NCBI GenBank assembly: GCA_964016885.1
Contig: OZ024742.1
Coordinates: 224,812,001-224,876,000, forward strand
Source of the DNA: Eledone cirrhosa
Lineage: Eukaryota
Length of the DNA: 64,000 bases
Reading direction: 5' to 3'
Shown: positions 59,524-61,539 of the stretch, in pieces
Layout of the letters: each line of letters starts with the position of its first letter
Numbering within the stretch: position 1 is the stretch's first letter
Made by a program: the position numbers and the translations under genes
The notes under the pieces: model-generated
The model's input: the letters and a program-made list of their open reading frames with translations, nothing else
Told to the model about the DNA's origin: nothing
Database searches by the model: none

Positions 59524-60342
59524 TTAGTCGAACCAAAGAGGGCTCGATAAGGATAGATATATATCAAACATGTAAGAACACTAGAGCAAATATTGTTCTC
59601 ATTGCTGACGTATTATCTTTGCCTTTTTCCGTTCATTGCCAGGGAATGTGTTTACGAACCAAAGTATCGTCTTCCTGTTTTCCTCCGATTGCAACGTTTT
59701 TCGAAATATTTACTTCTGCGTTTTATGTTTTCATAATGTCGTAATGCCGACAGCCAGACATACAGACAGATATTATAAGAGCGCGACGTTATAGCTATGT
59801 ATCTATTTAAAAAGACAGACTAAGAAAGAGAGAGAGAGATCTCTAACCGGCGCCTAATGCGGTCGCTAGGGCATTGAAAATTTGAAATATTTTGCACAAA
59901 ACACTCACACGACCATTTAGGTATCAGCCGTACTAAGAGTGAGAAATGAAATTTCGTTCCATTCTTTTCCATATATATATATATATATTTATATACAGCT
60001 GATACCTACATATAAGTATGTATACGTTCAATCATCTGACAGAAAGGTATACGAGGCTGACGATAGCTAATAAGATTGAAACTAGTACATCGTTCTTGTG
60101 TCAGTGTTGAACAAAAGGGCGACGATGGTTGCCGAACACTGTACGGCGTAATTCGGGCTGTTTGTTTACAAACAAACCGAACATTATAATAAATGTTCAG
60201 TAAACCCATACGTACATATATAGATGTGTGTGCATGTATGTATACATACTACTGTACGTCTGTATACATATATGTATGTACATATACATACTTATATTTA
60301 AGTATCAGCCGTCCTAAGAGTGAGAAATGAAATTTCGTTTCA

Positions 60343-60430
<88 letters not shown>

Positions 60431-60481
60431 ATATATATATATATATATATATACCACAGGTATCTTACCACACGTTCTTTG

Positions 60482-60536
<55 letters not shown>

Positions 60537-60578
60537 GTACTCGTTTTCGGTGCGCCTGGCCGACTGAACTCACTCGAT

Positions 60579-60586
60579 ATGCAAAT
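60579..60586 (+). promoter_or_regulatory. Octamer motif ATGCAAAT in the retrozyme unit
   Basis: Perfect octamer also at 36781, 61087 (+) and ~28496, 34683, 36441, 57216 (-); function inferred. Confidence 0.45.
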
Positions 60587-60660
60587 TAGGCTGCACAGCC
60601 GTTAATTTTCATAAGGAAAGTATATACTTTCGAACGTTCAACCATCTGGCAGAAGGGTAT

Positions 60661-60703
60661 ACGGTGCTGACGATAGCTAACAAGCTTGAAACTAGTACAG
60701 CGT
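60661..60703 (+). ncRNA. Minimal type I HHR (retrozyme family)
   Basis: acggtg-CTGACGA-tagct(aaca)agctt-GAAA-ctag-TA-cagcgt. Confidence 0.8.
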
Positions 60704-60852
60704 TCCTGTGTCAGTGTTGAACAAAAAAGTGACGTGGTTGCCTTAACACCGTACGGCATAAATCAGGCTGTCAGTTTGTTTACAAACGGACAAAGCGAGC
60801 GTTATAATAAACGTCCGCTAAACTGATACGTACATATATATATGTGTACCTG

Positions 60853-60935
<83 letters not shown>

Positions 60936-61168
60936 GCTACTGTACGTCTGCATACATATATGTATGTACGTATACATACATACTTACATTTAAGTAAGTG
61001 CCGTATAAGAGTGAGAAATGAAATTTCGTTTCATTCTATTCCAACTTATCGATTTCAGTGCGCCTGGCCGACTGAACTCACTCGATATGCAAATTAGGCT
61101 GCACAGCCGTTAATTTTCATAAGGAAAATATATACTTTCGAACGTTCAACCATCTGGCAGAAGGGTAT

Positions 61169-61211
61169 ACGGTGCTGACGATAGCTAACAAGCTTGAAAC
61201 TAGTACATCGT
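61169..61211 (+). ncRNA. Minimal type I HHR (retrozyme family)
   Basis: acggtg-CTGACGA-tagctaacaagctt-GAAA-ctag-TA-catcgt. Confidence 0.85.
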
Positions 61212-61331
61212 TCCTGTGTCAGTGTTGAACAAAAAGGTGACGTGGTTGCCTTAACACCGTACGGCATAAATCAGGCTGTCAGTTAATAAACGTCCGCTAA
61301 GCTGATACGTACATATATATATGTGTACCTG

Positions 61332-61388
<57 letters not shown>

Positions 61389-61498
61389 GCTACTGTACGT
61401 CTGTATACATATATGTATGTACGTATACATGCATACTTACATTTAAGTAAGTGCCGTCCTAAGAGTGAGAAATGAAATTTCGTTTCATTCTATTCCAA

Positions 61499-61539
<41 letters not shown>

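Follow-up and report, generated by a model that had tools for sequence, protein, structure and literature searches.

Mobilisation of animal non-LTR retrozymes by Penelope elements (PLEs) has been proposed from co-occurrence and from pLTR homology, as set out in the accessible text of PMC7229834 and of bioRxiv 10.64898/2026.07.22.740005, and the retrozyme repeats are described, in the available part of a review (PMC7761336), as having no motif that points to a partner. PLEs of the Neptune, Hydra and Naiad clades are reported in the accessible portion of PMC8557442 to carry an inverted 5'-truncated copy, with the tail often at one end only, and according to the available text of PMC11167929 the Poseidon element of the anole cuts both target strands and extends them from two internal start sites, one at either limit of the tail.

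The repeat family described here was followed from a 64,000-nucleotide stretch of the Eledone cirrhosa genome (hereafter the window; contig OZ024742.1, positions 224,812,001 to 224,876,000), and all coordinates below without a locus name count from its first letter. The family consists of tandem non-coding units present in high copy number, each with a single type I hammerhead motif. At a rough probability of 60%, it is an animal non-LTR retrozyme, the RNA of which is predicted to be cut and circularised and which was likely inserted into (TA)n by a Penelope-type reverse transcriptase and endonuclease.

Copies in the window and in the genome

The three CUGACGA...GAAAC-UA-GUA motifs that the first-pass annotation had read as a head-to-tail series of ribozymes are present at 60057-60087, 60667-60697 and 61175-61205, with cuts predicted after 60087, 60697 and 61205, and the 508-nt spacing of the last pair, with its internal TA tract, was borne out. 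However, only two of the three form a dimer, the 60087 motif belonging to a separate and diverged copy. Differences between the 60087 ribozyme and the other two amount to 19 in 149 and 20 in 165 positions (12-13%), compared with 3 in 169 (1.8%) between those two, and (TC)n, TA and a piece of a foreign element lie between the 60087 copy and the dimer. Because of this divergence and separation, the 59.9-61.5 kb locus is a 508-nt dimer with a separate older copy, about 12% different, beside it, and not a trimer.

The dimer is a two-unit insertion of subfamily B (60541..61500, plus strand) that starts at a tail position, runs through two ribozymes to end at the long ('tail') 3' site, and there passes into (TA)n. 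Within it lie hammerhead 2 with its extended stem I (60632..60724, plus strand; one stem I G-G mismatch), a cut-to-cut monomer of 508 nt in which the internal TA tract is expanded (60698..61205, plus strand), hammerhead 3 with all pairs kept (61140..61232, plus strand), which has a U.U at the base of stem II and a palindromic ACUAGU stem III, and a tail of about 56 nt spanning the short to the long 3' site (61440..61500, plus strand), probably the interval between two reverse-transcription start sites. The older copy, of subfamily C, carries hammerhead 1 (60024..60345, plus strand), runs out into (TC)n at 60346-60427 and meets a short inverted piece of the unit (59996..60025, minus strand) in a 5'-to-5' joint. 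A tail-only fragment followed by (TA)n lies at 59920..59971 (plus strand), and a fragment of a different TA-flanked repeat (60459..60483, minus strand) sits between the subfamily C and B insertions.

Related copies were found at each of the other places annotated, namely 28.2-28.5, 34.4-34.9, 36.2-37.1 and 56.8-57.5 kb. These comprise a decayed copy with a short 3' end (28168..28548, minus strand), a rearranged two-armed insertion with one tail end and one short end (34428..34945), a back-to-back two-armed insertion with one ribozyme in each arm (36159..37134) and a subfamily D copy (56831..57451, minus strand) with a long 3' end, a single ribozyme at 57135-57105 that has a GUU triplet and a C.A at the stem II base, and the expected terminal redundancy of 439 nt (57315 minus 56876). 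The full motif had been ascribed to every copy, but the 28.4-kb copy has AAAA for GAAA, the 34-kb ribozyme is split by an inversion, and among the three ribozymes of the 59.9-61.5 kb locus pairing is intact only at 61205, two pairs being broken at 60087 and one at 60697.

The repeat is non-coding, as had been claimed: the ORF list holds no frame of at least 110 aa over 59.9-61.5 kb, no long frame extends over the copies, and unit GC is below 50%. In the 3.0-Gb genome the suggested check of copy number returned 23,655 exact matches to a 32-base core pattern and 26,677 to a 25-base post-cut pattern, with none for either reversed control, and both counts are lower bounds on copies; a young subfamily has 8,369 exact matches and the GUU-triplet subfamily 827 matches. 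Of 38 cut-to-cut spacings, 37 lie in the range 419-538 nt and one, the gap within the window, is 610 nt; unit length varies mostly through the internal TA tract. A single insertion was seen to hold 15+4 ribozymes across 8.75 kb. At L229:1316-8890 a 15-unit arm has higher-order period-8 (and period-4) structure, and at L213:1674-4338 a single TA tract holds three adjacent two-armed insertions. Divergence is 1.4% between arms (45 pairs) and 1.3% between tandem units (77 pairs), with a median of 10% between loci; arms are as alike as tandem units, and the arrays were therefore mostly born as multimers.

The retrozyme reading is supported by tandem units with one type I hammerhead each and no ORF, and further by substitutions that keep the structure, by dispersal of the family as tens of thousands of copies and by read-through of the cut site. 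An LTR-plus-internal layout was absent from the unit map. An autonomous PLE was rejected because the copies have no RT plus GIY-YIG ORF, and a MITE or SINE because 5' ends are scattered, units are circularly continued and there are no fixed termini at both ends.

Ribozyme and predicted RNA fold

The ribozyme has a six-pair stem I, continued via two further helices, a four-pair stem II and a palindromic stem III of one to two pairs. It matches what the accessible text of PMC4209133 defines as the 'canonical' metazoan type I hammerhead, and by those definitions the earlier description of it as 'minimal' has to be dropped. Rfam hammerhead scans, which had been proposed as a check, gave no match at gathering scores, nor any at E up to 10 over 59.9-61.55 kb. 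Among 70 distinct indel-free copies (of 76 distinct found), pairing is kept in 97.8% of cells, a conservation that is inflated for the core since sequence patterns within or next to the ribozyme were used to pick most of the loci, a choice that also biases 5'-end positions. One stem I pair takes the forms UG, GU and AU in this set, and common variation lies at N7, loop II, the cut base and wobble-tolerant pairs. Across 17 monomers, two-sided changes occur at 6 of 115 predicted pairs, long-range helices included.

The circle of the 60698..61205 monomer is predicted to fold at -167 kcal/mol (z -9.6, 25 shuffles), and the monomer circles are predicted to be 64-71% paired, with z between -6.1 and -9.7 in five of five monomers, values that the TA palindrome inflates. 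The best fold of the monomer pairs the catalytic core with loop III (-29.4 kcal/mol, versus -20.5 kcal/mol for the active form), and in axolotl, according to the accessible text of PMC7229834, ribozymes with a U.U at the base of stem II or a palindromic loop III cut poorly as monomers and better in dimeric form. On the strength of this fold and these parallels, cutting is predicted to be weak and dimer-dependent. For retrozymes of Xenopus, the available part of the published account gives only one of nine predicted dimers as cleaved in vitro.

Insertion footprint and Penelope elements

The 3' ends of the copies fall at two sites about 56 nt apart, approximately 219 and 275 nt past the cut (u219 and u275), and 149 of 157 tail or short 3' ends adjoin (TA)n. 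The 5' ends are scattered from u48 to u420, as judged by 72 ends at 36 cleanly mapped junctions out of 63. The permuted start points of the first-pass annotation are thus seen at the 5' ends, which vary, but not at the 3' ends, which are fixed. The same annotation had counted fixed termini of MITE or SINE type against its own reading; half of that pattern is present, in that the 3' ends are fixed, but these lie internally and away from the cut, as in Penelope elements, and do not correspond to MITE or SINE ends.

Opposite-strand neighbours are arranged back-to-back in 20 cases and face-to-face in 1, and an inverted arm lies upstream in 118 of 190 arms. Joints between arms are 5'-to-5' and vary in position, and as a rule only one of the two arms carries the tail: in 78 of 85 two-armed insertions overall, a long end is paired with a short end (58/63, 15/17 and 5/5, the last by eye, where the 58/63 takes in an out-of-sample 13/14 and counts the duplicated locus L060 twice). 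The exceptions are three long-long insertions and four with an intermediate end, and short-short insertions number zero. In LINE-1 twin priming both target ends prime cDNA, giving a 5'-to-5' inversion as in the retrozyme arms. The retrozyme differs from LINE-1 in lacking poly(A), in having fixed, internal sites for both priming events and in arms whose content overlaps. For a minority of arms the end point is intermediate, within the tail at about u232-238, and the sequence beyond is in some cases (GT)n or other than TA; examples are 57413 and 59996 in the window and L004 and L203. A 9-bp target duplication occurs at one non-TA site, for a copy inside a Hydra-like ORF, target duplications being illegible in TA flanks (59 simple insertions).

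Penelope elements of the same genome served for comparison. A Neptune-like element outside the retrozyme family, taken as a control (22453..24111), is two-armed with its tail at one end and lies in (TA)n. Together with the piece at 16352-18176 it displays RT, GIY-YIG, a hammerhead motif of its own and a 62-nt tail, and in its family, for which the genome holds 34,865 first-look candidates, the tail-at-one-end rule was followed in 7 of 7 cases. A Hydra-like family (43081-43455 in the window; L136:3214-5563) has a 783-aa open frame and 46,987 first-look candidates in the genome, and no canonical hammerhead was evident near it in a motif scan. Given the two-site footprint of the retrozyme, the same rule in the Neptune-like element and the printed footprint of PLEs, it is very probable that the retrozyme is mobilised by a Penelope-type enzyme. 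The first-pass annotation had guessed at a Penelope-type RT, a guess that is now backed by the insertion footprint.

An autonomous partner with homologous ends was not found in the one Hydra-like and one Neptune-like family compared. There was no homology of the retrozyme unit to the one Hydra-like family, the three strong matches being co-located copies, nor any evident likeness to the Neptune-like ends. At L148:1457-2841 a retrozyme copy is directly joined to an inverted 3' end of Hydra-like type and to an ORF fragment in sense orientation. This fusion, which involves a second Hydra-like ORF, is unique among the 72 arms that have no inverted partner; it may be a template switch, from which the partner could be named, or else an insertion accompanied by a deletion.

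Several further repeats were observed in the window. A Poseidon-like Penelope element at 29714-33818 has an RT (Pfam RVT_1, E 6.4e-10) and an inverted end. Another back-to-back TA repeat at 57391-58339 and 44968 has a hammerhead motif, also with a U.U at the stem II base, and a hammerhead-bearing end with a long stem II occurs as a back-to-back pair in TA at 62990-63277. A TA-flanked repeat at 61760-61920 (and at 5.5, 14.4, 42.8 and 62.7 kb) has an apparent hammerhead stem III, GUC triplet and stem I but lacks a CUGANGA core. A long imperfect tandem repeat, CAC/CAT-rich and followed by (CATA)n, occupies 48359-50311.

Template, alternatives and comparison with described systems

An exact upstream ribozyme end precedes 22,514 of the 26,677 post-cut motifs (84%). 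Ten among the first 100 motifs listed were without one, of which four belong to the GUU subfamily, four are point mutants and two start within 9 nt of the cut, and a position within 10 nt of the cut was found for just one among 72 junction 5' ends. Because the copies continue across the cut site, a cut linear monomer is ruled out as the main template. To separate a circle from an uncut multimer, rare variants were listed genome-wide and clusters were fetched; the matches to a second rare-variant pattern were 10 singletons, none of them clustered. Fourteen loci were listed with at least two copies of a rare variant, which is in every unit at seven of them and in some units at the other seven. 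Of the latter seven, L164, L205 and L232 have unit-specific variants common to both arms, in register from the 3' end; L228 and L229 have period-2 or period-8 structure; and L227 and L237 have rare variants that are scattered or in blocks. Period-2 or period-8 structure is also seen at L056 and L208. The offset test behind these results used full units only, the 5'-most partial units misaligning, and left out the last two loci. With 7 of 14 clusters heterogeneous, a monomer circle alone is insufficient as the template.

The history of one unit can be followed between chromosomes. Three derived variants, at u15, u250 and u400, co-occur in 2 of 15 units of L229. L230 and L233, which lie on other chromosomes, carry all three in each full unit, and the majority units of the other young arrays under comparison have none of them. 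L233 has a fourth variant in every unit of both arms that covers its position, and L231, L234 and L235 form a second uniform sister set. The three-variant block of L229 has its borders between u401 and u14, a window of 19% that contains the cut, and such a cut-site phase would arise by chance in about 19% of cases. Spread of one unit from L229 to L230 and L233 fits rolling reverse transcription of a monomer circle, and the in-register and period-2 or period-8 loci are compatible with multimer RNA, whether linear or circular, or with unequal exchange at a later time. The simplest joint reading is that cleavage is incomplete and that the enzyme receives monomer circles as well as multimers. Contigs that join across the cut site, from runs of unknown kind, were rejected as evidence of circles because tandem DNA does likewise, and low-depth read matches in runs X5 and X6 were left out.

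A probable mechanism would begin with transcription of the arrays. The weak ribozyme, with its U.U at stem II and its palindromic stem III of 1-2 bp, is predicted to cut mainly as a dimer and incompletely, yielding monomers and multimers that a host ligase could circularise. The footprint suggests that the enzyme would then nick both TA target strands, each DNA end priming at an internal position, one or other of the two fixed sites that lie 56 nt from each other, with synthesis passing through ribozyme junctions for up to at least 15 units. Monomer circles would likely renew the long homogeneous arrays, and multimer RNAs are likely also templates. Somewhat short of an even chance is given to the fuller proposition that the whole retrozyme life cycle can be read in the genome, with units cut from arrays, circularised or joined into mosaic multimers, and copied by a dimeric Penelope enzyme rolling from both target strands at two fixed starts. 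Were it true, the 'tail at one end' of Penelope elements would correspond to one start site per target strand, and ribozyme-made circular RNA would be a retrotransposition template in an animal.

The most serious alternative keeps the family and the Penelope-type enzyme but takes as template an uncut linear multimer from genomic arrays, the ribozyme acting rarely or at another step and circles being by-products. The in-register variants shared by the arms of L164, L205 and L232 are in favour of this, as are the lowest-energy monomer fold, which pairs the catalytic core with loop III, and the accessible text of PMC11167929, where unprocessed RNA was the dominant substrate of an anole PLE in vitro and ribozyme mutants inserted normally. 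It is nonetheless rather unlikely, as one-unit amplification is needed for L233, L236 and L260, which are uniform for rare variants in both arms, and for the L229 unit that fills L230 and L233; moreover, linear copying only shortens arrays, and the 36 mapped junctions are almost all different, so two-armed loci were not recopied whole.

Amplification in DNA is the basis of another explanation, in which an orphaned Penelope pseudo-LTR made short insertions that later underwent minisatellite-like expansion by unequal crossing-over, a route discussed in the available text of bioRxiv 10.64898/2026.07.22.740005. Opposite arms as alike as tandem units, uniform sister arrays on different chromosomes and the lack of a parent PLE in the two families tested make this improbable, even with the exact period-2 or period-8 repeats and blocks (L056, L208, L228, L229 and L166) and the whole-locus duplication seen at L060 to its credit. 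Finally, the back-to-back arms could be fold-back or assembly artefacts of TA-rich DNA, given that the window contains many inverted duplications and that one array stops at an N gap. There is next to no likelihood of this, since the arms have two different fixed ends in 78 of 85 insertions, the second arm of L164 is no mirror of the adjacent units, and read-derived contigs, from runs that may be of the source sample, contain both the tail-to-TA end and the opposite-strand joint.

On all genomic criteria tested, the unit belongs to the animal non-LTR retrozymes as a newly found family. No published account of this family, or of this insertion footprint for a retrozyme, was found in a search that covered mostly listings, with subscription journals outside its coverage. 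The family bears on the RT route of retrozymes, the enzyme involved and the role of Penelope hammerheads. Its insertions number in the tens of thousands and carry a strict two-site footprint, it includes young uniform arrays and variants traceable from a unit to its daughter arrays, and it yields exact predictions (cut site, two start sites and target) for in vitro work with the Neptune-like and Hydra-like elements of the genome.

Like the metazoan non-LTR retrozymes of coral, mussel and axolotl in the accessible text of PMC7229834, the family has tandem non-coding AT-rich units with one type I hammerhead each, no apparent LTR and a highly paired predicted circle. Unlike those retrozymes, its unit is 419-538 nt, compared with 150-450 bp there. 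In the axolotl ribozymes of that text the palindromic tetraloop stem III belongs to HHR_Amex1 and the U.U at the stem II base to HHR_Amex2, whereas here both weakening features occur in one ribozyme. The portion of PMC7229834 available makes no mention of paired fixed 3' ends, of two-armed insertions or of (TA)n targeting. With EN+ PLEs, as described in the accessible parts of PMC11167929 and PMC8557442, the family shares AT-rich or (TA)n targets, an inverted 5'-truncated copy, a tail mostly confined to one end and a hammerhead upstream of the putative start sites; unlike them, the retrozyme has no ORF and its whole unit, of about 0.45 kb, is circularly repeated. Its tail of about 56 nt compares with 30-40 bp in published PLEs, as far as the available text gives it, and with 62 nt in the Neptune-like family here. 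The vertebrate retrozymes of Li, Clavereau and Pollet (2026, bioRxiv 10.64898/2026.07.22.740005) are similar, in the accessible text, in that abundant PLEs co-occur with them and in their monomers, dimers and multimers. However, the link to PLEs consists there of co-distribution and pLTR homology and here of an insertion footprint, and the genomic evidence on mechanism is in this family unusually direct.
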